Shown here piece after piece: positions 49,336-60,965 of a stretch of DNA of 64,000 bases. A program made the translations under genes and the position numbers. The notes below the pieces were generated by a model, which saw nothing but the letters and a program-made list of their open reading frames with translations, did not search any database and was not told the DNA's origin. The stretch is from a virus (taxonomy: Duplodnaviria; Caudoviricetes): positions 128,001 through 192,000 of the IMG/VR virus record IMGVR_UViG_3300031669_005479. The stretch is one strand, 5' to 3'. Position 1 is the stretch's first letter. Every line of letters begins with the position of its first letter.

Positions 49336-49952
49336 TATGGTGTATTCGCTACACTATCCCTCATTTCAGTAGTATTGATTTTCAATGTTTCCCCAACAAT
49401 GAAATTTTCAGTAAATGCCCTAATAAATAGTGCTCGTATTTTTTGTGGTGCTTTTTTAAATGCAATAAAATCAATCTCATCACCATTTTCTGTATATAGT
49501 GAAACATTAATGTCGTTCCATTGAAATGCATTAAACCATGTGTCTTCTGTTGGTTCAATATCAGTATCTGGAGTGCCACCAAGTCTTCCATAGTTACGCT
49601 TACCATCAACACTAATTCCTATATTATCGCTGTCAAAATCAAGACCAAATTCAATTGGGTTTTTTTGCGAGTCGTATAGATATTTTACCTTAAGGTGATA
49701 TTCGATTGTTAATCTATCTGCATCATCAAAATTATATTCATCCCAATTACCACCAATTTGTGAATCTAATATTTCAATAATTTTTATTTTGGAATTTATA
49801 TTCAGTAGTGAATCACAAATAAATTGCTTTTGTAAATCTTCGTTATTTAGTAATTCAATGGTTTCCTGTTCTTTGTTATATTCTTCGTTACCCAAAAAAT
49901 CGAATTCTGAAATTACCTCGTTAATGACTTTTATAATATTCTTATTTTTCAT
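49329..49952 (-). CDS. Hypothetical late protein
   Basis: Late motif upstream; N-terminal IIKVINEVISE. Confidence 0.55.
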   Translation of the reverse strand: MKNKNIIKVINEVISEFDFLGNEEYNKEQETIELLNNEDLQKQFICDSLLNINSKIKIIEILDSQIGGNWDEYNFDDADRLTIEYHLKVKYLYDSQKNPIEFGLDFDSDNIGISVDGKRNYGRLGGTPDTDIEPTEDTWFNAFQWNDINVSLYTENGDEIDFIAFKKAPQKIRALFIRAFTENFIVGETLKINTTEMRDSVANTPYC

Positions 49953-50238
49953 TAGACATATTTTACAATAAATACTAAAAATATTTTAATATTTACTTGC
50001 CCTAATCACAATATTAACATTTTAAATATTAGTTCATAGTATTTATATTAGAAAAATCATTGCTTAGTATATGAATTAAGTTATGTTAAATTGGCAAAAA
50101 TGATTTTTAAAATTTTATCTCCAGATAGTGGTTATGTAAAATTTTAATTGCTAATAAATAAAAAATTGCATCATAAGTTCTAATTACGGTGCAATTTTTT
50201 TTATGCTATAATTAAGTATTTATTTAAAAGATACTGAT

Positions 50239-50544
50239 ATGACAAATAACAAACATAGACTTTTTGAACTTATGGAAAAAGTTAACCCTAACTTCAAAAA
50301 TGAAGATGTACTACAAAAAACAACAGAACCAGTTCCTACAGATGTTGCAAATCTTGAAAAGGCAGTAAAATCTTCAAGTTCTGTTCAATATGCAGATTCT
50401 CGTATTGATACACCAAAGGAATTCGAATTTGCATTTAAGGATTGGTTGAGTGGTACGGGTTTTCATCCACAAAAAAATCCAATATCTATTTCTCAAGCGC
50501 AAAGTTTTGTTAAAAATGCAATGGAAAGTTTAGGATATAAATAA
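50239..50544 (+). CDS. Late protein with N-terminal KHRLFELMEKVNPNF tag
   Basis: AGTATTTAT upstream; tag shared with three other ORFs. Confidence 0.6.
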   Translation: MTNNKHRLFELMEKVNPNFKNEDVLQKTTEPVPTDVANLEKAVKSSSSVQYADSRIDTPKEFEFAFKDWLSGTGFHPQKNPISISQAQSFVKNAMESLGYK

Positions 50545-50559
50545 TTTTTTTAAAAAATG

Positions 50560-50590
50560 CTTGTATTTATAATTTTATTATATATCTTTG
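50560..50590 (+). promoter_or_regulatory. Bacteroidota sigma-A-type promoter for tRNA cluster 1
   Basis: CTTG-N19-TATCTTTG matches the -33 TTTG / -7 TAnnTTTG consensus. Confidence 0.65.
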
Positions 50591-50628
50591 TATCGATTTT
50601 GTTTATACATAGTTTTAAAGTTTTAGTT

Positions 50629-50703
50629 ATGAAAAATTTAACACATACACAACCCCAACCGAAACAACAGCCACAAATTGTTGAATGGGGAAGTTATGCT
50701 TGA
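50629..50703 (+). CDS. Putative attenuator leader peptide (MKNLTHTQPQPKQQPQIVEWGSYA)
   Basis: 5 Gln, 3 Pro and 1 His codons ahead of Pro/His/Gln tRNAs; contains GAATGGGG, a copy of the terminator 3' arm. Confidence 0.75.
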   Translation: MKNLTHTQPQPKQQPQIVEWGSYA

Positions 50704-50733
50704 ATTTTTCGAAAGATGATTTTAAGTGAAAAA

Positions 50734-50764
50734 AACCCCATTCTTAATTGAATGGGGTTTTTTT
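50734..50764 (+). terminator. Attenuator terminator 1
   Basis: AACCCCATTC-ttaatt-GAATGGGGTT followed by a T run, between the leader and the first tRNA. Confidence 0.85.
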
Positions 50765-50821
50765 GTAACAAAAAAATTTTTATTTCGTACAATAGTTCAT
50801 TGACATATTAATATTTTATAT

Positions 50822-50896
50822 CTAGGTGTTCCGCAGATGGATATACGGGCGTGCCTTGGAAGCACGTGTTCGCAGGTTCGAATCCTGCTACCTAGA
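50822..50896 (+). tRNA. trnP: tRNA-Pro(UGG), copy 1
   Basis: Acceptor CTAGGTG/TACCTAG, anticodon arm CGTGC-CTTGGAA-GCACG, TTCGAAT loop. Confidence 0.85.
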
Positions 50897-50981
50897 GGTA
50901 ATCAAATTAAACTACCTGCACGTGGTGATTACTGCACGGTTGAATAAACCGACCAAATGTTTAATGTATAATATATATGGT

Positions 50982-51491
50982 ATGAGTAATATAAGCGATA
51001 TACTTAAAGAAGCAAAAAGTAAAGGATATTATGCCGATGAATATGGTAAAATTTATTCAGCGAAGAAATTAATTTCATTACGAAATAGAGATAATCGGTT
51101 AAATTTTACCATAAGATATTATGGAAAAAGAGTTACAATTGCCGTACATAAGTATGTTGCATATTTAAAATATGGTGATAAAATTTTTGATGATGGTATT
51201 GAAGTAAGACATTTAAATGGAAATTCGCTAGATAATTCATATGAAAATATTTTAATTGGAACTCATAGCGATAATATGCTTGATATTCCAAAAAATGTTA
51301 GAATAAAAAAAGCAATATCAGCATCAAGTAAAAATAGAAAATTTGGTGATGATATCATTAAGAATATTATGAATGATAAAAATAATGGTATGTCATATAG
51401 TAAATTATGTGAAAAATATAATACAAGTAAATCGACATTAAGTTATTTATTTAATAATGCGTATTATAGTGGTGCTAGAAATATAGAGTAG
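50982..51491 (+). CDS. HNH homing endonuclease
   Basis: VHKYVA...EVRHLNGNSLDNSYENILIGTHSDN; stop overlaps the next tRNA; start could be 50964. Confidence 0.8.
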   Translation: MSNISDILKEAKSKGYYADEYGKIYSAKKLISLRNRDNRLNFTIRYYGKRVTIAVHKYVAYLKYGDKIFDDGIEVRHLNGNSLDNSYENILIGTHSDNMLDIPKNVRIKKAISASSKNRKFGDDIIKNIMNDKNNGMSYSKLCEKYNTSKSTLSYLFNNAYYSGARNIE

Positions 51492-51557
51492 TAGCGCAGT
51501 TGGAAGCGTACCGCATTTGGGATGCGGGGGTCGTGAGTTCGAGTCTCACTTACTCTA
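51485..51557 (+). tRNA. trnP: tRNA-Pro(UGG), copy 2
   Basis: Acceptor AGAGTAG/TTACTCT, CCGCA-TTTGGGA-TGCGG, GTGAG-TTCGAGT-CTCAC. Confidence 0.9.
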
Positions 51558-51565
51558 CTAAACAT

Positions 51566-51637
51566 GGTGATTGAAGCATTAAAGTGATGCGTCAGACTGT
51601 GAATCTGAAGAAGACGGGTCAGTACCGTCCTTTCACC
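51566..51637 (+). tRNA. trnH: tRNA-His(GUG), atypical
   Basis: TCAGA-CTGTGAA-TCTGA, G-1/C73; two U.U mismatches in the acceptor stem and a non-canonical T loop GTCAGTA. Confidence 0.65.
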
Positions 51638-51642
51638 CAAAT

Positions 51643-51707
51643 ATCGATTCTACAATCGATAAATATATATTATCGGTTGTAGAATCGATAAATATATATT
51701 TATCGAT
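51643..51707. repeat. Nested inverted repeats (20-bp hairpin + perfect 24-bp palindrome)
   Basis: ATCGATTCTACAATCGATAA-atatata-TTATCGGTTGTAGAATCGAT overlapping ATCGATAAATATATATTTATCGAT. Confidence 0.85.
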
Positions 51708-51870
51708 GTGATAGACGGCAAATGAGTTGGTGTTAAAGAAGACATAACCAAAGATAAGTTAAATAATCTTAGAGTAGATGTAATGCAGAAGATACGAAAA
51801 GATATTGTAGATGGTAAATGTCAATTATTTACATACGAAAGAAAATTTTATTAATTAATTAATATAATAC

Positions 51871-51944
51871 TGTCTCGTGGCGCAATCGGCTAACGCTCCT
51901 GACTCTGAATCAGATGACTACGGGTTCGAATCCTGTCGAGACAA
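51871..51944 (+). tRNA. trnQ: tRNA-Gln(CUG)
   Basis: TGTCTCG/CGAGACA acceptor, loop CTCTGAA; C27.A43 mismatch. Confidence 0.85.
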
Positions 51945-52006
51945 CAATAGTATTTTTTTGCAAAAAGTAGCATTTTTCGATACTTTCCGCAAAATATAAC
52001 TAATAT

Positions 52007-52091
52007 TGACCTCTGGTGGAATTGGCTAAACACAACTGTCTTTGAAGCAGTCGTCCGTAAGGATTTGCAAGTTCGAGTCTTGCGAGGTCAA
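52007..52091 (+). tRNA. tRNA with UUG (Gln) anticodon and long variable arm
   Basis: TGACCTC/GAGGTCA, ACTGT-CTTTGAA-GCAGT, variable arm TCC-GTAA-GGA. Confidence 0.8.
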
Positions 52092-52222
52092 CAAAAATAG
52101 GGTAGAATGGTGAGACAGCTTCCCCTCGGACTAAAGGCATCAGGATTTGACGATGCCGATGTGAAGCATAGGTCAAGCAATGCATTGACTTAGGTCGAAC
52201 CAAGAAAATCGAGGTTATTTAT

Positions 52223-52295
52223 TGCTATGTAGTGTAATGGTTTAGCACAAGTGACTTTGAATCACTTAGTTACAGTTCGAATCTGTACATAGCAA
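52223..52295 (+). tRNA. trnQ: tRNA-Gln(UUG), canonical
   Basis: TGCTATG/CATAGCA, AGTGA-CTTTGAA-TCACT. Confidence 0.9.
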
Positions 52296-52304
52296 CTATT
52301 TTTA

Positions 52305-52386
52305 ATGTGGAAGTTAAAAAAATTCATTATTTTTACAAAAACATTATGTGGAAGTTAAAAAAATTCATTATTTTTACAAAAACATT
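52305..52386 (+). repeat. Exact 41-bp tandem duplication
   Basis: ATGTGGAAGTTAAAAAAATTCATTATTTTTACAAAAACATT twice. Confidence 0.9.
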
Positions 52387-52389
52387 ATT

Positions 52390-52773
52390 ATGAAGTATAA
52401 CCTATATCTTGATGACTTCCGTGACCCCATAGATTCTGCATATTATCTTAATAATCCTATTTATGAAACACTTCAATGGATTGTTGTTAGAAATTATGAT
52501 GAATTTATTAAGTGTGTTATAGAAAATAGTATTCCAGAAGTAATATCCTTCGATCATGACTTGGCAGCAACACATTATGACCATCAATCTAATATAGAAT
52601 ACGATGTATTTACAGAAAAAACTGGTTATGATTGTGCTAAATGGTTTATTGATTATGTGATTGATAATAAATCGAAACTACCAAAAACAATACTTATTCA
52701 TTCGATGAATCCTGCTGGAAGTGCTAATATTAAATCGCTATTTGATAGTTATATTAAATCATTAAATCTGTAA
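52390..52773 (+). CDS. Cyclic-phosphate processing receiver-like domain protein
   Basis: LYLDDFRDP...VRNYDEF...ISFDHDL...TGYDCAKW...HSMNPAG..NI; start moved past the duplicated upstream segment. Confidence 0.75.
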   Translation: MKYNLYLDDFRDPIDSAYYLNNPIYETLQWIVVRNYDEFIKCVIENSIPEVISFDHDLAATHYDHQSNIEYDVFTEKTGYDCAKWFIDYVIDNKSKLPKTILIHSMNPAGSANIKSLFDSYIKSLNL

Positions 52774-52825
52774 CAAATTTTAAATGTTTTCGTATAATCA
52801 ACATATTTATATATAAATCGATATT

Positions 52826-53467
52826 ATGAAAAATGGATTAAATGAAAAACAAATACTATTCGAAATGATGGAAAAAATAAATCCAGATTTCAGATATAAT
52901 ACCGATGTCATTGAAGGTGTTGGAGATAAATTTTTATCTAATAAACATATAGTTCCCGATGAATTTGATGAATTCGATAAAACATATTCTGCAACACAGA
53001 ATGATAAAAATGGTGTTGTTTATCAGGAAGGTAATTGGCAGATATTAAAAAATCCCCAATCATTAACGGGTTTTGGTGCATCAGTCAGAGGAATCATTAT
53101 GGATAATGGTGATTTATATCTTGAATCTCATGCAAAAAAAATTCATAATGATATACTTAAGATTTTAACAGAAATTGGTGTATTTACACAAATGCCACAA
53201 ATAAATTGGGGTATGAGAATTCCCCAAGAGAGTGGGTTTTTAACCGTTCAGAGATATAAAAATTCTCCATATATTGCTATAGGTGAAAGTAATCGAATTA
53301 TATATAAAATCGATAACTACGATAAACTAAAAAAATATTATGATGAATATATTGATAAGGCAAAAATAAAAATGCCAAACATTGAATTTATCGATAAACT
53401 TGTTGGTTCAAAAAGTGTTGTAAATACAAGTGGTGCTAATATTATGAATGAAACCTATTTAAAATAG
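52826..53467 (+). CDS. Late protein with N-terminal KQILFEMMEKINPDF tag
   Basis: ATATTTATA upstream; tag shared. Confidence 0.6.
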   Translation: MKNGLNEKQILFEMMEKINPDFRYNTDVIEGVGDKFLSNKHIVPDEFDEFDKTYSATQNDKNGVVYQEGNWQILKNPQSLTGFGASVRGIIMDNGDLYLESHAKKIHNDILKILTEIGVFTQMPQINWGMRIPQESGFLTVQRYKNSPYIAIGESNRIIYKIDNYDKLKKYYDEYIDKAKIKMPNIEFIDKLVGSKSVVNTSGANIMNETYLK

Positions 53468-53746
53468 TTATTTCATCATCTAATTTCCTAAGTATTTATC
53501 ATTAAAGATATAAACATATTTACAATATAACAGTTAGGACTGTTATGGTTTCGACCAAATTAGGGATGATAAACGTTCGCTACTATTATCATCCCTTTCT
53601 TTATTGTAAAAATTTATCCAAAATTATGCATTAATTATGTTGCTAATATTATTGGTAGATTGATAATAAGATATTTAAAATATTTTTTCTTGTTTTTATA
53701 ATAATTAAATATTTCCTTTGCATTGAAAATTTAAACACACAAAACT

Positions 53747-54649
53747 ATGAAAATTACTATTGATTATCTTAAAAAAATTAGGGCTTGTGATGAAGCAATT
53801 GCTAGGTTTAACAACACACCTGAACTACATTCAGTTAATATTGAAAAATCAACTGAAATTATTGTTGGTGATGTATCATTATTTAATGATATTAATTGGT
53901 TAGTTAATAAGTTAAAAGGTAAACTGCCTGTTAGAAAGTTAACCTATAAAGGTTCTGATGGTTATTGGTCAGAAATGACTTATGATGATAATGGAAATAA
54001 GTTAACATATAAAAATTCTGATGGTTATTGGTTAGAATATACCTATGATGAAAATGGAAAATTGTTAACCACTAAAAATTCTGATGGTTATTGGTTAGAA
54101 TATACCTATGATGATAATGGAAAATTGTTAACCACTAAAAATTCTGATGGTTATTGGGAAGAAAACACCTATGATGATAATGGAAATAAGTTAACACATA
54201 AGAAATCTAATGGTAGTTGGGAAGAAAACACCTATGATGATAATGGAAATAAGTTAACATATAAAAATTCTGATGGTTATTGGGAAGAAAACACCTATGA
54301 TGATAATGGAAATAAGTTAACATATAAAAATTCTAATGGTTATTGGGAAGAAAACACCTATGATGATAATGGAAATAAGTTAACATATAAGAATTCTGAT
54401 GGTTATTGGGAAGAAAACACCTATGATGATAATGGAAATTTGTTAACCACTAAAGATTCTAAAGGTTATTCGTGTGAATATACCTATGATGAAAATGGAA
54501 ATAAATTAACCTATAAGGATTCTAAAGGTTATTCGTGTGAATATACGTATGATGAAAATGGAAATAAATTAACCAATAAGGATTCTAATGACAATATTAC
54601 TGATTACCCTAAATTAAAATATGATTTGACTATTTTTGAAATAAAATAA
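53747..54649 (+). CDS. YD-like tandem-repeat protein (10 x 21 aa)
   Basis: Repeat KLTYKNSDGYWEENTYDDNGN (63 bp). Confidence 0.8.
   Translation: MKITIDYLKKIRACDEAIARFNNTPELHSVNIEKSTEIIVGDVSLFNDINWLVNKLKGKLPVRKLTYKGSDGYWSEMTYDDNGNKLTYKNSDGYWLEYTYDENGKLLTTKNSDGYWLEYTYDDNGKLLTTKNSDGYWEENTYDDNGNKLTHKKSNGSWEENTYDDNGNKLTYKNSDGYWEENTYDDNGNKLTYKNSNGYWEENTYDDNGNKLTYKNSDGYWEENTYDDNGNLLTTKDSKGYSCEYTYDENGNKLTYKDSKGYSCEYTYDENGNKLTNKDSNDNITDYPKLKYDLTIFEIK
53936..54591 (+). repeat. 63-bp coding tandem repeat, about 10.4 copies
   Basis: Directly visible; several copies near-identical. Confidence 0.9.
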
Positions 54650-54710
54650 TTCTAATAACTAATTGAGAATTAAGTATTTGAGAAATATATTGAAAATATT
54701 TTAAAAATAG

Positions 54711-54741
54711 TTTGCAATTATTGTAACATTTTATACCTTTG
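54711..54741 (+). promoter_or_regulatory. Bacteroidota sigma-A-type promoter for tRNA cluster 2
   Basis: TTTG-N19-TACCTTTG. Confidence 0.75.
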
Positions 54742-54789
54742 CATCGTATTTAGATAGAAAGAAACAAAAACAATTTAAATTATAAAACA

Positions 54790-54879
54790 ATGAAAAATTT
54801 ACTCGACATATTAATGGCAACTTTGGTGGAAGTCCTATTATGGGCAGACGCAGAGGATAAATTACGCACAGTCGGGTAA
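54790..54879 (+). CDS. Putative attenuator leader peptide (MKNLLDILMATLVEVLLWADAEDKLRTVG)
   Basis: 19 of 29 codons are L/D/A/V/E/W, the amino acids of the downstream tRNAs; ends in AGTCGGGT, a copy of the terminator 3' arm. Confidence 0.8.
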   Translation: MKNLLDILMATLVEVLLWADAEDKLRTVG

Positions 54880-54908
54880 TGTATATTACACACTCCTTTC
54901 TTAATAAG

Positions 54909-54943
54909 AAAAACCCGACAAACGAAAGTAAGTCGGGTTTTTT
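54909..54943 (+). terminator. Attenuator terminator 2
   Basis: AAAAACCCGAC-aaacgaaagtaa-GTCGGGTTTTTT between the leader and tRNA-Asp. Confidence 0.85.
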
Positions 54944-54983
54944 GATTTTTAGGTTGGATGTTCTTTGACATGTTGGAAATTTT

Positions 54984-55060
54984 GGTGATGTAGTTCAGTT
55001 GGCTAGAATGGGGCACTGTCTATGCTCAGGTCGAGGGTTCGAGTCCCTTCATCACCGCCA
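54984..55060 (+). tRNA. trnD: tRNA-Asp(GUC), CCA encoded
   Basis: GGTGATG/CATCACC, GGGCA-CTGTCTA-TGCTC, G73, CCA. Confidence 0.92.
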
Positions 55061-55076
55061 AATTATAATATTAAAT

Positions 55077-55160
55077 GCGGCGTTATACAAGTGGCTAAAG
55101 TGGCAAGACCTTCAATCTTGTATCGAAAGATTTCGAGGGGTTCGAATCCCCCACGCCGTA
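55077..55160 (+). tRNA. tRNA with UUC (Glu) anticodon, C33 and long variable arm
   Basis: GCGGCGT/ACGCCGT, CAAGA-CCTTCAA-TCTTG, variable arm ATC-GAAA-GAT, Tyr-like D loop AAGTGGCTAAA. Confidence 0.7.
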
Positions 55161-55255
55161 CGAAGTTCAATATGAAATATAGTGGTTTCAGAGGTTTGTT
55201 CATATTGAGGTTTAGTAATTCCAAGGTCGATAATAATGACCAAAAATCTCGCCAT

Positions 55256-55327
55256 GCTCGATTCGTCTAACGATTAGGACAAATGGTTTTCGTCCATTAA
55301 ATGAGGGTTTGATTCCCTCATCGAGTA
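55256..55327 (+). tRNA. trnE: tRNA-Glu(UUC)
   Basis: GCTCGAT/ATCGAGT, AATGG-TTTTCGT-CCATT. Confidence 0.85.
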
Positions 55328-55335
55328 CAATAATT

Positions 55336-55406
55336 TGGGGAATTGATGTAATGGTAGCGTGTTTGGCCTACATCCAAAACGAAATAGTTCGATTCTATTA
55401 TTCCCT
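55336..55406 (+). tRNA. trnV: tRNA-Val(UAC), atypical (C33, U1.U72)
   Basis: TTTGG-CCTACAT-CCAAA, AATAG-TTCGATT-CTATT. Confidence 0.75.
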
Positions 55407-55418
55407 ACAAAATAAATT

Positions 55419-55493
55419 GCGAGTGTAGCCGAATGGTTAATAGGCAACTGTTTTAGAAACAGAAATTTGCGGGTTCGACTCCCGCCATTCGCA
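55419..55493 (+). tRNA. tRNA with UAG (Leu) anticodon and short variable loop
   Basis: GCGAGTG/CATTCGC, (A)CTGT-TTTAGAA-ACAG(A), 5-nt variable region, A73. Confidence 0.75.
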
Positions 55494-55516
55494 CAAAGGG
55501 TTAAAAACAAAACTAT

Positions 55517-55603
55517 GGGGATGTGATGAAATTGGCGATACATGCCAGACTTAGAATCTGGTGCTAATAAACTGGCGTGTGGGTTCGAATCCCACCATCC
55601 TCA
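55517..55603 (+). tRNA. trnL: tRNA-Leu(UAG), canonical class II
   Basis: GGGGATG/CATCCTC, CCAGA-CTTAGAA-TCTGG, long variable arm, A73. Confidence 0.92.
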
Positions 55604-55716
55604 CGTTTAGACCGTTTAGAATTTTTATTAGTAATGAAAATGCTAGTAAACATAAAAGTTGTTCAATCACATTGGATGAATTATTGACGAGAATTAAAAT
55701 GTGGAATGTGAAATAT

Positions 55717-55791
55717 GGGGCGTTAACTCAGTCTGCCTAGAGTGCTGCACTTGCAATGCAGAGGTCATCGGTTGAAATCCGATACGTTCCA
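55717..55791 (+). tRNA. trnA: tRNA-Ala(UGC)
   Basis: GGGGCGT/ACGTTCC with G3.U70, CTGCA-CTTGCAA-TGCAG. Confidence 0.92.
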
Positions 55792-55848
55792 CGAGTAGAC
55801 CGTTTTAGAATTTTTTATTGACTAAGAGTAACGTAGAAAAATTCATAT

Positions 55849-55922
55849 GGCTCTGTAGCCGAACTGGAATAGGCAACTGTTTTAAAATCAGAAATTTGTG
55901 GGTTCGAGTCCCACCAGAGCTA
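55849..55922 (+). tRNA. tRNA with UAA (Leu) anticodon and short variable loop
   Basis: GGCTCTG/CAGAGCT; body paralogous to the 55419 tRNA; weak anticodon stem (CTG/CAG). Confidence 0.7.
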
Positions 55923-56081
55923 CAAATCGTCTGGAGATTCCAGACAAAGTTTTTATAGTAAAATTTATTATTGTTTAATGAATGAAATTGAGTTACATGT
56001 TATTGATACTACAGAACAAAAATGTTTTAAAAAATGTATCTCTGAAAAGTATTTAAATATGATTATTAATATCATTAATAC

Positions 56082-56164
56082 ACGTCCGTAGGCATTGGTA
56101 AGCCAAACAGTCTCCAAAACTGCAACCCGAAAGGGTCTTGCTCGTTCGAATCGAGCTGGACGTG
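56082..56164 (+). tRNA. trnW: tRNA-Trp(CCA) with long variable arm and 4-bp anticodon stem
   Basis: ACGTCCG/TGGACGT, G73, (A)CAGT-CTCCAAA-ACTG(C), variable arm ACCC-GAAA-GGGT. Confidence 0.82.
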
Positions 56165-56257
56165 CTAATTTTTATAAATTTTGTAACATTTTGAATAGAG
56201 TATACGTATCATAAGAATCATTTAGTATTTTATTAATTTTGTAAAATTTATAAAGTT

Positions 56258-56995
56258 ATGTATATTATTGCAAAGAAAAACGAAAAGGATTATTATGATG
56301 GTGTTGTTGGTACCGTAGGTATTGATAAAACAATTGTGTATGAACGTAATATTATTGATGTCGAAAACAATAAAATTCCACCATTATTTAAAGAAGCAAC
56401 ATTATCCAATTTCGATAATATTAAAAATAATTACTTTCATCAACTACATGACTTCAGAATTGATAAAATCCATGAAAATAAATTTCCATACGATTCATAC
56501 TTTATTGTAGGATTTTGTGGAAAACTATATGTGGGTTGGAAACTTTATAGTTTTAAAAACATCAATAACGATGTGCTTATTACAATTACGTATGATTTGG
56601 ATTATATCTTTGAACTTTTTGACGAAAAAAATCGATTTGGTAATAGTCTATATGATATTGTTAGTTATATTTTAAACTATGATGCCATCGATTTGTTTAG
56701 AGAATTAAATACACCAATTTTCATATATGATTATGATAGTAATGTGAAAAATATTAGTGGTTATTGTCGTGAATATCATAATTCAAAATTCATTATAAAT
56801 CCACTATTAAAAAACTATGAATTTTATAAAAAATTTGATAGTTTTCAAACATTTCAAGAAATAAGTATGTTTATTGGTGGAGTGTTAGGTAGTAAAGAAA
56901 AGAAAATTATTGAAGTTGAGGACAAGTATAAAATTGCACAACATGGCTTTAATAAATGGAGTTTTAGAAAAGAACCTAAAGATAAATCGATATAA
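56258..56995 (+). CDS. Hypothetical protein
   Basis: Intact 245-aa ORF. Confidence 0.6.
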   Translation: MYIIAKKNEKDYYDGVVGTVGIDKTIVYERNIIDVENNKIPPLFKEATLSNFDNIKNNYFHQLHDFRIDKIHENKFPYDSYFIVGFCGKLYVGWKLYSFKNINNDVLITITYDLDYIFELFDEKNRFGNSLYDIVSYILNYDAIDLFRELNTPIFIYDYDSNVKNISGYCREYHNSKFIINPLLKNYEFYKKFDSFQTFQEISMFIGGVLGSKEKKIIEVEDKYKIAQHGFNKWSFRKEPKDKSI

Positions 56996-57101
56996 TTTCA
57001 ATATACATGAATACTGGTATTGTAAGGAAAAATTGTCGTTACTTTTGAAATGTTAAAATTTTGTTGTTTATTTGTAACCATAAATTAATAAATATTGTGC
57101 T

Positions 57102-57539
57102 ATGTTTAATCCAGAGAGAAAAAGGGAAGAATTTGAAATAGAATTACATAATTTTATTAATTCATCTGAAGGAGATGCTTACTTTGAGAATGAAAGAATC
57201 AAAGAAGAGTTAAAACAAATTCGTTACAAACATTTTGAAAAATTTCTTGAATCAAACGATTTTGATAAACTCATGTATCGTTTAATTCTTGAACATGATG
57301 ATGAGTGGAGAGAAAAATGTTGGCATAATGGATGTGAGCCATATCCAAATAATAAATTAGGATTTGTTATTGATTATGTTACAAATAATTTTGATACCAT
57401 AGATGTTCCACAACTTCAAAATTCTTTTAATACACAAATTTGGTTTTTTAAGGGATATTATTTTAGAATAACGTTTGGACAGGGAGTTGTCTTTGATTTG
57501 TATAACGGAGACGATTTTAGTCATTTGTTACATGCATAA
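57102..57539 (+). CDS. Hypothetical protein
   Basis: Intact ORF with promoter-like TATTTG upstream. Confidence 0.55.
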   Translation: MFNPERKREEFEIELHNFINSSEGDAYFENERIKEELKQIRYKHFEKFLESNDFDKLMYRLILEHDDEWREKCWHNGCEPYPNNKLGFVIDYVTNNFDTIDVPQLQNSFNTQIWFFKGYYFRITFGQGVVFDLYNGDDFSHLLHA

Positions 57540-57639
57540 TTATTTGGCGAAGTGATGAATTGGTGGGAGGTAGAACTTGGTGGAGTTAATAAAGGTGCAG
57601 AAAGATTACGTGCTAAAACAGAAATTAAAAAAGAATTAA

Positions 57640-57831
57640 ATGAGTTTACTTTTTAGAAATTGGCTCGATGAAGGTTATTATAAAGAAGATGGTTATGATG
57701 ATTTAACTCGAATTGAAGACCGTGCAGATATTCTTCGTGCGCAAAAGGAAAACACACTATATCAAAATGATGGTATGACTACCACAAAAGTAAATGATGG
57801 TGAAAATATTGAATTATGGCAAAAGCAATAA
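57640..57831 (+). CDS. Small hypothetical protein
   Basis: ORF track; plausible codon usage, unverified. Confidence 0.35.
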   Translation: MSLLFRNWLDEGYYKEDGYDDLTRIEDRADILRAQKENTLYQNDGMTTTKVNDGENIELWQKQ

Positions 57832-57941
57832 AAAACAATAAATCTATACCCAAAGAGGATGATTGTAAATGTGGTAAATCTGTTAAAATAACACAAAGAA
57901 AAAATATTGGATATAAAAAAACAATTAAAAAAAGAATATAG

Positions 57942-58016
57942 CCCCTAGTGACGTAACTTGGCAAACGTGTTCGGCTCAAACCCGAAATTTTGTGGGTTCG
58001 AATCCCACTTAGGGGA
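57942..58016 (+). tRNA. tRNA with CAA (Leu) anticodon and short variable loop
   Basis: CCCCTAG/TTAGGGG, TTCGG-CTCAAAC-CCGAA, 5-nt variable region, A73. Confidence 0.8.
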
Positions 58017-58091
58017 CAACTAATTTAAATTTAATGTTATGAAAAAAATGTATGAAGTTTTGTAAATTGCTCTAATGCAATTGCAAAACAA

Positions 58092-58373
58092 ATGAAAAGT
58101 AAAAAAATCGTGGACACTACCACAAATCGTGGCGAATTCAATCGTGCTTATAAATCGTATCTTGAACATGATGGTAAAATTCGTTGCACTTATTGTTCAT
58201 ATCATCGTGGCGAAAATAAAACCACTCATATGTATTGGGGTGATGATGAGCATATTAAATACCCTAACTGGAAATTAGTTTCAAAGTATTCTAAACGGTG
58301 GATGAAAAAACCGATGAGAATGATTGAACGCACCAATCGATGGGGTAATAATTACGTTGAGATTAAATTTTAG
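58092..58373 (+). CDS. Small basic hypothetical protein with CxxC
   Basis: RCTYCSYHRGEN motif. Confidence 0.55.
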   Translation: MKSKKIVDTTTNRGEFNRAYKSYLEHDGKIRCTYCSYHRGENKTTHMYWGDDEHIKYPNWKLVSKYSKRWMKKPMRMIERTNRWGNNYVEIKF

Positions 58374-58382
58374 ATGCTCTTT

Positions 58383-58453
58383 GGCGACATGGTATAAAGG
58401 TAGAACACCTCTCTCATAAGGAGTTGATACGGGTTCGATTCCCGTTGTCGCTA
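58383..58453 (+). tRNA. tRNA with CAU anticodon (elongator Met or Ile2)
   Basis: GGCGACA/TGTCGCT, loop CTCATAA, ACGGG-TTCGATT-CCCGT; followed by the perfect palindrome ATCCCCTCGAATTCGAGGGGAT. Confidence 0.8.
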
Positions 58454-58494
58454 CAATCCCCTCGAATTCGAGGGGATTATAATTTCCAACATGG

Positions 58495-58746
58495 TTATTT
58501 TTTAATAAACCATTTCCATCCTGCATATGCTATGGATGTAAATATCCAAAGTCCTAAAAGAATGTTGGCGAGTCCAACACCATCTTTATTGTAAACATTA
58601 TTGTAAGATAAAACAATTACAATATAGTTTACAACAATAAACCAATTTTTTTTAAGCCATGATAATGGCTTTGTAATAAACCATGTTTTTATTGCAGTCC
58701 ATTTAACAAATAGCCATGCTACAATTTTGTTCCAGAGATTTTTCAT
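58495..58746 (-). CDS. Small membrane protein
   Basis: Trp-rich amphipathic N-terminus plus two hydrophobic helices. Confidence 0.55.
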   Translation of the reverse strand: MKNLWNKIVAWLFVKWTAIKTWFITKPLSWLKKNWFIVVNYIVIVLSYNNVYNKDGVGLANILLGLWIFTSIAYAGWKWFIKK

Positions 58747-58764
58747 AATTATATTTAGATTATA

Positions 58765-59232
58765 TTATTTGTTGAAATTTAATGTGCAGGTATTTGTGCT
58801 AAAATCAAATTCTAAATCCTTAACAAATAAACCGCTACCATACATAAGTGCAATATCCTCTGGAACCTTAAATTTCCATTGAAAATCACCTATTTGTTTC
58901 ACACTACCATTTGATTCTGGAACAACCGCATCGCTTTGTTTATCACGAAATTCTAGCAAATATTGACCTTCGACACTTTCTCCAACAACAATAAAATTTT
59001 CAATACCTGCATTATTAATTCTAAATCCTGCTTTCCACGTTATTGTGATTTCAGCATTAATTATGTCGGCATCATAATCGCTAGAAAAATTTTCATAGTT
59101 ATAGAAAAAAACGTTTGGGTGTAATATTGTTTGTTTAAATGTGAAATGATTGCTATCATTTGTTGTATTTTGATTTAAAAAATTTTGTACCTCTTCTGTT
59201 ACAATATTTTTTGTTTTAAATTTATTTATCAT
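58765..59232 (-). CDS. Hypothetical late protein
   Basis: AGTATTTATG upstream (about 59247-56). Confidence 0.55.
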   Translation of the reverse strand: MINKFKTKNIVTEEVQNFLNQNTTNDSNHFTFKQTILHPNVFFYNYENFSSDYDADIINAEITITWKAGFRINNAGIENFIVVGESVEGQYLLEFRDKQSDAVVPESNGSVKQIGDFQWKFKVPEDIALMYGSGLFVKDLEFDFSTNTCTLNFNK

Positions 59233-59298
59233 ATTTGTGATTTTTCATAAATACTATATTCTATTCAAATTGTTTTGTATATTTGTAAAAAAAAGTAA

Positions 59299-59835
59299 AT
59301 GCATAACATTATTGAACAGGAATATAGTTCAGCAAAAACATCAATAAAACAAATTCCAGCTGGTGTTAATATTATTGATAAATATTTTGGTTGGAAGCCC
59401 AATACAATTAATTTGGATATTGGTGGTGGAAAATATGAGTTAATGACAGAGAATTTACATGAGAAGCATGTTTTGAATTTAGTTTATGATCCCTATAATA
59501 GAAGCATTGCACACAATCAAATGGTTTTAACGGCATGTAAATCACTTGTAATAGATACTGTAACCATATTTAATGTGCTGAATGTTATTAAGGAGCGTGA
59601 AATTCAAATAGAGGTGATTAATCTTGCATTAGCGATGCTTAAAATGAACGGTATGTTATTTGTCAGGTCAACATATATGAATAAAAATAAGGTGTCTGGC
59701 GTAACAAAATTGGGCACATTTCAGCATCACATGAAGCAATCAGAGTATCTTAAGATAGTTCAGAATGTTTTTCCAAATGCTGAGTTAAATCATGGAATAA
59801 TCTTTGCAAAAAAGTTATCCAACATAGTAACATAA
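59299..59835 (+). CDS. Class I SAM-dependent methyltransferase-like protein
   Basis: NLDIGGGK, VYDPYN, NVLNVI motifs. Confidence 0.65.
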   Translation: MHNIIEQEYSSAKTSIKQIPAGVNIIDKYFGWKPNTINLDIGGGKYELMTENLHEKHVLNLVYDPYNRSIAHNQMVLTACKSLVIDTVTIFNVLNVIKEREIQIEVINLALAMLKMNGMLFVRSTYMNKNKVSGVTKLGTFQHHMKQSEYLKIVQNVFPNAELNHGIIFAKKLSNIVT

Positions 59836-59879: not shown

Positions 59880-60965
59880 ATGGAAATGTTAAAAAAGGTT
59901 GATTGGAATTTGTTGAATACTTATATTGATAATAGTCATATTGTAGCAAATAAACACCCACAATATGATATTTGGATATTGAACTATTCACCAAAGGCAC
60001 AATCTAATAAATTTTGGGATATATATACCCTATCTTGTCGTGGATTGGTGATTGATGTCGATGGTAATATATTAGCACGTCCATTTCAAAAATTTAAAAA
60101 TTATGAAGAGCATAATCCATCAGAAATCGATATGTCACAAGAATTTGATATTTTCGAAAAAATGGACGGTTCGTTAATCATAGTATTTTACTATGTGCCA
60201 CGTATGGAATGGATTGTCGCTTCAAGAGGTTCATTCATTTCTGAACAGTGTATGGAAGCAAAGAAAATGATTGATGTAAATATTTACAATAAACTTAAAA
60301 CTGATTGTACATATTTATTTGAAGTAATATATCCAGAAAATAGAATTGTTCTTGACTATGGAAATAGAAGAGAATTGGTATTGCTTACAAGGATTAAAAC
60401 TGAATCTGGTATGGAAATGTACTATGATGATTTAGTTGCAACATATTCAAAATACTTTACTGTTGTAAAGAAATACATACTAAATGATATTCATGACCTA
60501 AATGATTTAAAAGCAATTGAAGAGGAAAACAAAGAAGGATTTGTTGTTAGATTCTTAAGTGGATTTAGAGTTAAGGTGAAATTTAGCGAATACATTAGAT
60601 TGCATGGTATTTTAACAAATGTTTCTAATCTAACTGTTTGGGAACACTTAAAAAATAATTATGATTTCGATGATTTGTTGGATAGAGTTCCAGATGAATT
60701 CTACAGTTGGCTGAAAAGAACAGTAAGGATATTACAAGGAGAATTCAATGAAATTGAAAGATTGGCGTTGAAGGATTTTGTAAGAATTTACTATACTAAT
60801 GGAGTCACAGAACGCAAAGAATTTGCAATGGAAGCAATTAAAACTGAACATCGTTCAATACTGTTTAGATTGTACGATAAAAGAGGTTATGATGAAATTA
60901 TTTGGAAACTGGTGAGACCAATATATTCAAAGCCATTTTCTAAAAATTTTGAAAATATTTCATAA
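59880..60965 (+). CDS. RNA ligase (T4 Rnl1-like)
   Basis: YS...WD...CRGLVID, RPFQKFKN, EKMDGS motif I, FEVI, EGFVV, RVKVK. Confidence 0.85.
   Translation: MEMLKKVDWNLLNTYIDNSHIVANKHPQYDIWILNYSPKAQSNKFWDIYTLSCRGLVIDVDGNILARPFQKFKNYEEHNPSEIDMSQEFDIFEKMDGSLIIVFYYVPRMEWIVASRGSFISEQCMEAKKMIDVNIYNKLKTDCTYLFEVIYPENRIVLDYGNRRELVLLTRIKTESGMEMYYDDLVATYSKYFTVVKKYILNDIHDLNDLKAIEEENKEGFVVRFLSGFRVKVKFSEYIRLHGILTNVSNLTVWEHLKNNYDFDDLLDRVPDEFYSWLKRTVRILQGEFNEIERLALKDFVRIYYTNGVTERKEFAMEAIKTEHRSILFRLYDKRGYDEIIWKLVRPIYSKPFSKNFENIS

Follow-up and report, generated by a model that had tools for sequence, protein, structure and literature searches.

The leader 2 locus

The element described here, leader 2, lies in a 64,000 nucleotide (nt) stretch of the viral record IMGVR_UViG_3300031669_005479 (positions 128,001 to 192,000), hereafter called the window. 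It consists of a promoter, a short open reading frame (ORF) and an intrinsic terminator, followed by a boxA-like element and nine tRNA genes, and it is a candidate attenuator of these tRNA genes (Table 1). The genome is represented by one viral contig of 202,814 base pairs (bp) with 30% G+C, which holds the whole window; positions are those of the window unless marked as genome positions. Judged from its genome, the phage is a giant, uncultured one with a host in the phylum Bacteroidota, and its promoters are of the Bacteroidota type. Soil metagenomes are the main source of DNA from this phage. A megablast search with positions 50500-56300 against phage isolates gave no match, and the distant mode gave only scattered tRNA similarity. 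A tblastn search with the RNA ligase of the phage against the same kind of genomes gave nothing above 36% identity, indicating that there is no cultured close relative.

Table 1. Features of the leader 2 unit, with positions in the window.
Feature	Position	Strand	Description	Basis
Leader 2 promoter	54711..54748	+		Direct reading and regular expression scans
Leader 2 ORF	54790..54879	+	29 codons plus stop, MKNLLDILMATLVEVLLWADAEDKLRTVG	Reading; frame open in six relatives
Segment 1	54799..54807	+	UUACUCGAC, codons 4-6 (UUA CUC GAC; Leu, Leu, Asp); pairs with segment 2	Minimum-energy folds
Segment 2	54871..54879	+	GUCGGGU-AA (GUCGGGUAA; Val28, Gly29, stop); pairs with segment 1 or 3	Reading, folds
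Segment 3	54913..54919	+	ACCCGAC; 5' arm of the terminator and antiterminator partner of segment 2	Folds
Intrinsic terminator	54908..54943	+	12-bp stem, U6 run, -17.1 kcal/mol	Folding, terminator scan
BoxA-like element	54960..54983	+	GTTCTTTGACATGTTGGAAATTTT; abuts tRNA-Asp	Conservation, match to Bacteroidota rRNA spacer
Block 2, putatively regulated tRNA genes	54984..56165	+	Asp, Glu, Glu, Val, Leu(UAG), Leu(UAG), Ala, Leu(UAA), Trp	ARAGORN, Rfam

The promoter is composed of TTTG (54711-54714), a 19-nt spacer and TACCTTTG (54734-54741), and ends 48 nt before the ATG with no gene between promoter and ORF. It can also be read as TTG-N20-TACCTTTG. A second motif, GTAAC-N17-CGTA (54723-54748), overlaps this Bacteroidota sigma-A type signal. 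Both the promoter and the 29 amino acid ORF had been described in an earlier note on this DNA, made from the sequence alone, and we find them as described. Regular expression scans for both promoter classes returned the leader 2 promoter as the sole promoter-like site from 54650 to the end of the tRNA block. The terminator and tRNA-Asp are just 40 nt apart (the corresponding gap in the Lys unit, described below, is 18 nt), and the scans gave no promoter motif of either recognised class between the terminator and the tRNA block. The tRNAs of block 2 can thus be expressed only by read-through of the terminator. It should be noted that a general promoter and terminator scan misses this terminator, whose hairpin has a 12-nt loop, as it allows loops of 3-8 nt only, and that its sigma-70 model is unsuited to Bacteroidota. 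The public sequencing runs listed for this phage included none of RNA; a contig from the one run labelled cDNA (complementary DNA), probably DNA in fact, spans 54704-54952; it begins upstream of the promoter and is therefore uninformative on transcripts.

Members of the GTAAC/CGTA motif class stand before genes approximately 19 times in the whole genome, and the promoters of leaders 2, 3 and 4 each overlap one.

ARAGORN predicted nine tRNA genes in block 2, namely Asp(GUC), Glu(UUC) twice, Val(UAC), Leu(UAG) twice, Ala(UGC), Leu(UAA) and Trp(CCA). Eight of the nine are also recognised as tRNA by Rfam. The best match of the Trp gene is tRNA-Sec, below threshold, which we ascribe to its long variable arm.

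Composition of the leader 2 ORF

The ORF contains seven Leu codons (TTA four times, CTC, TTG and CTA), three Asp codons (GAC twice and GAT), three Ala codons (all GCA), three Val codons (GTG and GTC twice), two Glu codons (GAA and GAG) and one Trp codon. Our recount agrees with the numbers given in the earlier note, and the tRNA set called by ARAGORN (Asp/Glu/Val/Leu/Ala/Trp) agrees with its statement that the residues of the leader match the nine tRNAs downstream. These six amino acids make up 19 of the 28 residues after Met1, compared with 31.7% in the 134 long ORFs of the phage that served as background for amino acid composition (binomial p = 9e-5). Among the 1041 short ORFs of the genome, just 0.19% have a fraction this high.

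At the codon level, the leader 2 homologs over-use GAG, GTC and CTC, and the T-ending codons GCT, CTT and GTT account for 3 of 92 codons (alignment A2); in long ORFs, the shares of these three codons in their boxes are 23%, 18% and 56%. We do not count this bias as evidence, since it is partly forced by the pairing segments.

Alternative folds of the leader RNA

The terminator is formed by segment 3 and by segment 4, GUCGGGU at 54932-54938, which pairs with ACCCGAC and is followed by six T up to 54943. The end of the ORF, AGTCGGGT-AA (54870-54879), i.e. AGUCGGGU-AA, matches the 3' arm of the terminator exactly over 8 nt, in line with the earlier claim that the last codons duplicate this arm before tRNA-Asp. 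Both strands of the genome were scanned for terminators with a hairpin and a T-run, and only 3 of the 35 have 7 nt or more of their 3' arm repeated exactly upstream. These three belong to leaders 1, 2 and 4; leader 3 was also recovered as an arm-copy unit under a slightly relaxed rule. The composition and these arm copies together uphold the view of the earlier note that coincidence is unlikely.

The naked leader 2 RNA has a minimum-energy fold in which segments 1 and 2 pair (UUACUCGAC:GUCGGGUAA) and the terminator is formed by segments 3 and 4. The fold of the whole leader has a z-score of -3.1 against shuffled sequences. With a ribosome mask on codons 4-7, and with only the RNA before segment 4 present, the 2:3 helix GUCGGGU:ACCCGAC is formed instead, and a ribosome mask at the stop codon gives the terminator fold. 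The domain energies are -22.2 kcal/mol for 1:2, -12.8 kcal/mol for 2:3 and -17.1 kcal/mol for 3:4. According to these folds, leader 2 should work as a classical four-segment attenuator which terminates in the absence of translation. A start-codon mutant should then terminate as well (super-attenuation), because segments 1 and 2 pair. On this point we depart from the earlier note, which had predicted read-through for such a mutation; the folds predict termination, and read-through would be expected only in two of the relatives, L002 and G005, discussed below.

An anti-Shine-Dalgarno-like sequence, CUCCUUUCUU, is found at 54893-54902, between the stop codon of leader 2 and the terminator, and also in the relatives L001, L005 and L016. 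The sequence GAAAGGAG, located immediately behind the terminator in L001 and L005, is its complement there; the leader 2 genome does not show this complementarity.

Four leader units in one genome

Leader 2 is one of four units of the same kind in the genome. In brief, leader 1 (50630-50704, MKNLTHTQPQPKQQPQIVEWGSYA) is located upstream of two Pro tRNAs, a His-like tRNA and three Gln tRNAs. Leader 3 (genome 192917-193009, MRTFGKYYFSKKSYKKQLIGIGNSMSKRKS) lies just outside the window, and its terminator ends 18 nt before two Lys tRNAs; a third, Tyr-like tRNA of this Lys unit was called by neither ARAGORN nor Rfam in this genome. Leader 4 (genome 202637-202759) is composed almost entirely of T, R, N, I, S, G, F and C residues. 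Leader 4 and its terminator (genome 202637-202814; L009:10637-10814) end exactly at the end of the contig with no tRNAs after them. The tRNA block of leader 4 is thus cut off, and the contig is incomplete.

In every leader, the enrichment is confined to the amino acids of its own tRNA block. The P/H/Q set accounts for 9 of 23 residues in leader 1 (p = 3.4e-5), the D/E/V/L/A/W/M set for 20 of 28 in leader 2 (p = 4.8e-5), the K/Y set for 10 of 29 in leader 3 (p = 2.8e-3) and the T/C/I/S/N/F/G/R set for 34 of 39 in leader 4 (p = 6.9e-8). All 12 cross-comparisons of a leader with the sets of the others gave p > 0.18. The four units jointly cover all 20 amino acids.

Conservation in related phages

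Syntenic loci were collected from IMG/VR and metagenomes, anchored on a neighbouring 245 amino acid protein and on the Rnl1-type RNA ligase. Six relatives have homologs of leader 2, and the identity of their anchor proteins to those of the leader 2 phage is 50-68%. Their frames are open over 28-37 codons and encode the peptides MKKLLDILAAVLMVDVLLWAAEEDKLCTVG, MKNLLDILMVVLAVDLLWADAEDKLCLVG, MKNLLDILMVVLDAVLWAADEDRLCSVG, MKNLMDIMLISALVALLWADNDVDELCSVGFNKLRC, MKNLLNILSVVLVDALLWAADEDMVYRVGSKDTGVGY and, in a divergent form, MMIMLNFRHMFNKLEWSLLVDDAYLCFVG. The Asp/Glu/Val/Leu/Ala/Trp block is found downstream of every one of these homologs, and insertions and deletions comprise whole codons. The middle part of the peptide varies by exchanges among cognate residues, as in MATLVEV, AAVLMVDV, LISALVA and MVVLAVD. 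The 1:2 pairing is kept in leader 2 and three close relatives, and L036, the divergent relative, has segment 1 at another place, again on cognate codons (Leu-Val-Asp-Asp).

The composition of leader 4 predicted a set of tRNAs that the contig itself does not reach, and the prediction held in the relatives G001, G004 and G005: the tRNA genes behind their leader 4 homologs are those for Thr, Cys, Ile, Ser, Asn, Phe, Gly and Arg. The G002 contig has little DNA downstream of its leader 4 homolog, and this shows only tRNA-Cys.

In total, approximately 35 distinct leader units were found in approximately 100 related loci, and all but four or five of them lie within 400 nt upstream of tRNA genes. The ATG, the frame and the stop codon are kept in all of these approximately 35 units, despite an AT-rich background in which stop codons arise readily.

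More distant phages (L065:5918-6118 and L069:14617-14815), with an RNA ligase approximately 41% identical, have a single mixed leader of 44-46 codons before mixed tRNA arrays. The leader of L065 uses 19 of the 20 amino acids. In both, a segment of 8-12 nt near the end of the ORF matches the 5' arm of the terminator that follows. These may be 'universal' leaders.

The boxA-like element

The relatives all share the core of the boxA-like element, GTTCTTTGACATGTTGG (54960-54976), and a distant phage has it ahead of its tRNA array too. The earlier note does not mention this element. Its consensus, GTTCTTTGAC(A/G)T(G/A)TTGG, lies between the terminator of each attenuator and the first tRNA; it is found at 50795-50806 as well, and was seen in L001, L002, L005, L016, L036, L069 and L103. 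Exact matches to GTTCTTTGACATNTTG in reference genomes are mostly from Bacteroidota, e.g. Pedobacter, Sphingobacterium, Mucilaginibacter and Chitinophagaceae, and at least 20 exact matches of the box sit 1.85-2.3 kb past the start of the 16S gene. In the rRNA operon of Pedobacter hartonius, the box is placed between the spacer tRNAs and the 23S gene. The boxA plus spacer of the Escherichia coli rrn operons is UGCUCUUUA-ACAAUUUA (PMC2724277), and positions 54960-54976 are identical to it at 12 of 17 positions.

We suggest that the box is probably a boxA-type site for loading of Nus factors (antitermination), placed after the decision point, where it would shield the long untranslated tRNA transcript. 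A boxA-type RNA signal acts only on transcripts begun upstream of it, and this supports the attenuator mechanism suggested below. The matches also suggest that the host is a soil bacterium of the Sphingobacteriia or Chitinophagia. We considered the box as a promoter and rejected this, as it stands anywhere from 4 to 18 nt behind the terminator and no conserved upstream element accompanies it.

Suggested mechanism

The anatomy of the unit, its mutually exclusive folds, the match between codons and tRNAs and the conservation in relatives are direct observations. On their basis we are fairly confident that leader 2 is a ribosome-mediated (leader-peptide) transcription attenuator gating a phage tRNA operon; translation of the leader, stalling of the ribosome and the direction of the switch we infer from the anatomy and from the comparison with relatives. 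The earlier note had proposed a multi-amino-acid ribosomal sensor that switches on tRNA supply, and this is the best supported of the explanations that we considered, in view of the four matched leaders, the conserved open frames and the prediction from leader 4.

In brief, transcription would start from the leader 2 promoter, and ribosomes would translate the 29-codon leader. Fast decoding of the Leu, Asp, Ala, Val, Glu and Trp codons would bring the ribosome to the stop codon, where it would cover segment 2, GUCGGGU, so that segments 3 and 4 form the terminator and the transcript ends at 54943. A ribosome that lags on cognate codons, above all on the Leu-Leu-Asp codons of segment 1 (4-6), would leave segment 2 free to pair with the emerging segment 3. 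The terminator would then not form, and the RNA polymerase would continue through the boxA-like signal, probably loading the Nus antitermination factors of the host, and on through the nine tRNA genes. With no ribosome on the leader, segments 1 and 2 would pair and the terminator would form. As the tRNA product itself relieves the stall, this would be direct negative feedback on the tRNA supply, host and phage tRNAs alike.

Several observations weigh against this reading or narrow it. The 1:2 pairing is absent from L002 and G005, which would thus be expected to read through by default. In the same two relatives the stop codon lies 7 to 11 codons past segment 2, so that occlusion of segment 2 would have to come about by kinetics and not by a parked ribosome. 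Covariation support for the leader 2 unit itself is nil: the 2:3 pairing is 100% pairable in 7 of 7 sequences of the leader 2 family, but its core is invariant, and the 1:2 pairing, with 89% of cells pairable among the 7 sequences, shows zero compensatory changes. The covariation that would support the alternative helices comes from the sister classes 1, 3 and 4 only. In these, segment 2 co-varies with the terminator, as GAATGGGG / CCCCATTC versus GAACGGG / CCGTTCA in leader 1, GAATCGGG / CCCGATTC versus TAAGACTGG / CCGGTCTTA in leader 3, and ATCGGG / CCCGAT versus TTCGGG / CCCGAA in leader 4. A comparison of each leader with own and foreign terminators discriminates weakly: own terminators give approximately 8.2 contiguous pairs and foreign ones 5-8. 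The CCCGA core common to classes 2-4 accounts for this. In cluster 1, a GTAAC-N16-CGTA promoter is found at 50765-50790 (genome 178765), between terminator 1 and tRNA-Pro, and is kept in L005; the Pro/His/Gln block can therefore bypass its own attenuator. Finally, the leader 2 peptide is hydrophobic and partly conserved (LLWA...VG), and may have a role of its own.

Alternative explanations

Leader 2 could be a general sensor of translation capacity, in which any slowing of the ribosome opens the switch, as in the ermC or cat leaders. Such a sensor would fit the distant phages L065 and L069, where one mixed leader stands before a mixed tRNA array with the same kind of copy of a terminator arm. 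In the clade of the leader 2 phage, the four leaders split the amino acids in the way the tRNA blocks do, which would be needless for a general sensor, and we regard this explanation as quite improbable.

The ORF could also be an ordinary gene for a small protein, e.g. a hydrophobic micropeptide, with a terminator of its own. The tRNAs would then be expressed by constitutive leak-through or from an unrecognised promoter, and the composition would have no regulatory meaning. The hydrophobic, partly conserved peptide and the bypass promoter at cluster 1 are what one would expect from this. The VG end of the peptide is, however, dictated by the GUCGGG pairing segment, substitutions swap residues within the cognate set while positions are not kept, and no promoter motif lies between the leader 2 terminator and the tRNAs. 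Nor would a small protein account for four wholly different compositions on one architecture, each of which fits only its own tRNA block, or for a composition in leader 4 that foretold the tRNA sets then found in relatives. We find this explanation very improbable.

We give just as little credence to an RNA switch independent of translation, with hairpins set by a protein, by bound tRNA (T-box-like) or by polymerase kinetics and with an incidental frame: the alternative hairpins do exist regardless of translation of the ORF, and translation cannot be read from the sequence in Bacteroidota, which lack Shine-Dalgarno sites, but there is no match to the T-box or any other Rfam family, the ATG, frame and stop are kept as described above, and an enrichment at the amino acid level, spread over several codons each, is sensible only if the frame is read.

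Neighbouring genes and further observations

Genes for a cREC_REC (cyclic-phosphate processing receiver) domain protein (52387-52773) and for a T4 Rnl1-type RNA ligase (59880-60965) are located among the tRNA blocks. An HNH homing endonuclease gene (50979-51491) is inserted between the two tRNA-Pro genes, and many similar gaps of approximately 0.7-1 kb are found between tRNAs in the relatives. Most relatives have a transfer-messenger RNA gene between cluster 2 and Leu(UAA); ARAGORN found none in the leader 2 genome.

Some of the tRNAs in block 2 have odd shapes (55077-55161, 55419-55494, 55849-55923 and 56082-56165). Long variable arms are found on Glu(UUC) and Trp(CCA), and two Leu tRNAs, of 76 and 75 nt, are without a long variable arm. 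Two copies of the motif TAGACCGTTT(T)AGAATTTTT(T)ATT are present, one behind the second Leu(UAG) tRNA and one behind the Ala tRNA (approximately 55606-55635 and 55794-55825), and a 7-bp hairpin with an interrupted T-run follows Leu(UAA) at 55929-55945. The repeated motif and this hairpin may be sites of processing or of internal termination.

Possible role of the leaders

Phage tRNA genes are usually seen as a fixed supplement to codon usage, or as decoys against defences that cleave tRNAs. Little is known of the control of their expression, and leader-peptide attenuation has been little studied in Bacteroidota. Full-text literature searches gave no description of tRNA genes controlled by leader-peptide attenuation.

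If leader 2 is an attenuator, the phage would appear to gauge, codon by codon, whether decoding is limiting, and then to restrict transcription to the required tRNA block. A classical attenuator would here act on RNA genes rather than on genes for enzymes, with layered control in which the attenuator decides first and the boxA-type antitermination signal comes second. From such a design one could make testable predictions of the tRNAs that are missing from the host or destroyed by it in the course of infection, and it could provide compact, amino acid-specific sensors of decoding for synthetic biology.

More tentatively, it is possible that the four leaders form a sensing network over the 20 amino acids that reports missing host tRNAs and induces only the matching block, as an inducible counter-defence and homeostat and not a static supplement. 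The lack of tRNA that is sensed could then stem from a mismatch in codon usage, from host shut-off or from an anticodon nuclease defence, and the response would be aided by a boxA borrowed from rRNA operons and by the neighbouring RNA repair genes. An inducible answer to depletion or cleavage of host tRNAs is plausible because the Rnl1 ligase and the protein with the cyclic-phosphate processing domain adjoin the tRNA blocks.

Comparison with known systems

The unit resembles the trpL, hisL, leuL, pheL, thrL and ilvL leaders of Proteobacteria, which likewise have a promoter, a short ORF with regulatory codons, 1:2, 2:3 and 3:4 segments and an intrinsic terminator, and in which the position of the ribosome picks the fold. 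Leaders for several amino acids have precedents in thrL and ilvL. The attenuators of amino acid operons control enzymes, whereas the phage units would control tRNAs, whose product itself relieves the stall. Leader 2 further differs in that it belongs to a Bacteroidota phage and would sense six or seven amino acids without long tandem runs of codons. Also unlike the amino acid operon attenuators, the four phage units split the 20 amino acids between them and would be coupled to a boxA. Rfam gave no match to a leader family: leader 2 had no hit, and leader 1 scored far below threshold (Thr_leader 25 bits, PyrR 34 bits).

Genes of the translation apparatus are also found behind leaders. The pheM leader precedes pheST of E. 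coli. A His leader peptide is located before hisS paralogs in bacilli (PMC2965389). As proposed for the phage units, these leaders place a translation gene under the control of the decoding of codons for its own amino acid. Their target is a protein enzyme for one amino acid, whereas that of leader 2 would be an array of tRNA genes.

T-box riboswitches likewise gauge the status of tRNA and select between terminator and antiterminator. They bind uncharged tRNA directly and without an ORF, whereas leader 2 has an ORF, and a search for the T-box with Rfam covariance models gave no hit at E <= 1 within 49500-59500.

In the rrn operons, boxA and the Nus factors provide antitermination. The phage box is identical to the motif in the 16S-23S spacer of Bacteroidota and, similarly, precedes a long untranslated RNA array. 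Unlike rrn boxA, the phage element, a putative boxA by sequence, sits after a leader-peptide attenuator and before tRNAs.

The tRNA clusters of T4, T5 and jumbo phages are alike in their clustered tRNAs, their homing endonuclease inserts and their RNA repair neighbours (here an Rnl1-type ligase and a cREC_REC protein). For the tRNA clusters of T4, T5 or jumbo phages, literature searches did not turn up any codon-matched leader ORF with an attenuator. The working principle proposed here is that of the trp, his, leu, thr and ilv attenuators; what differs is the tRNA target, the phage setting, the four-way division of the amino acids and the coupling to a probable boxA.

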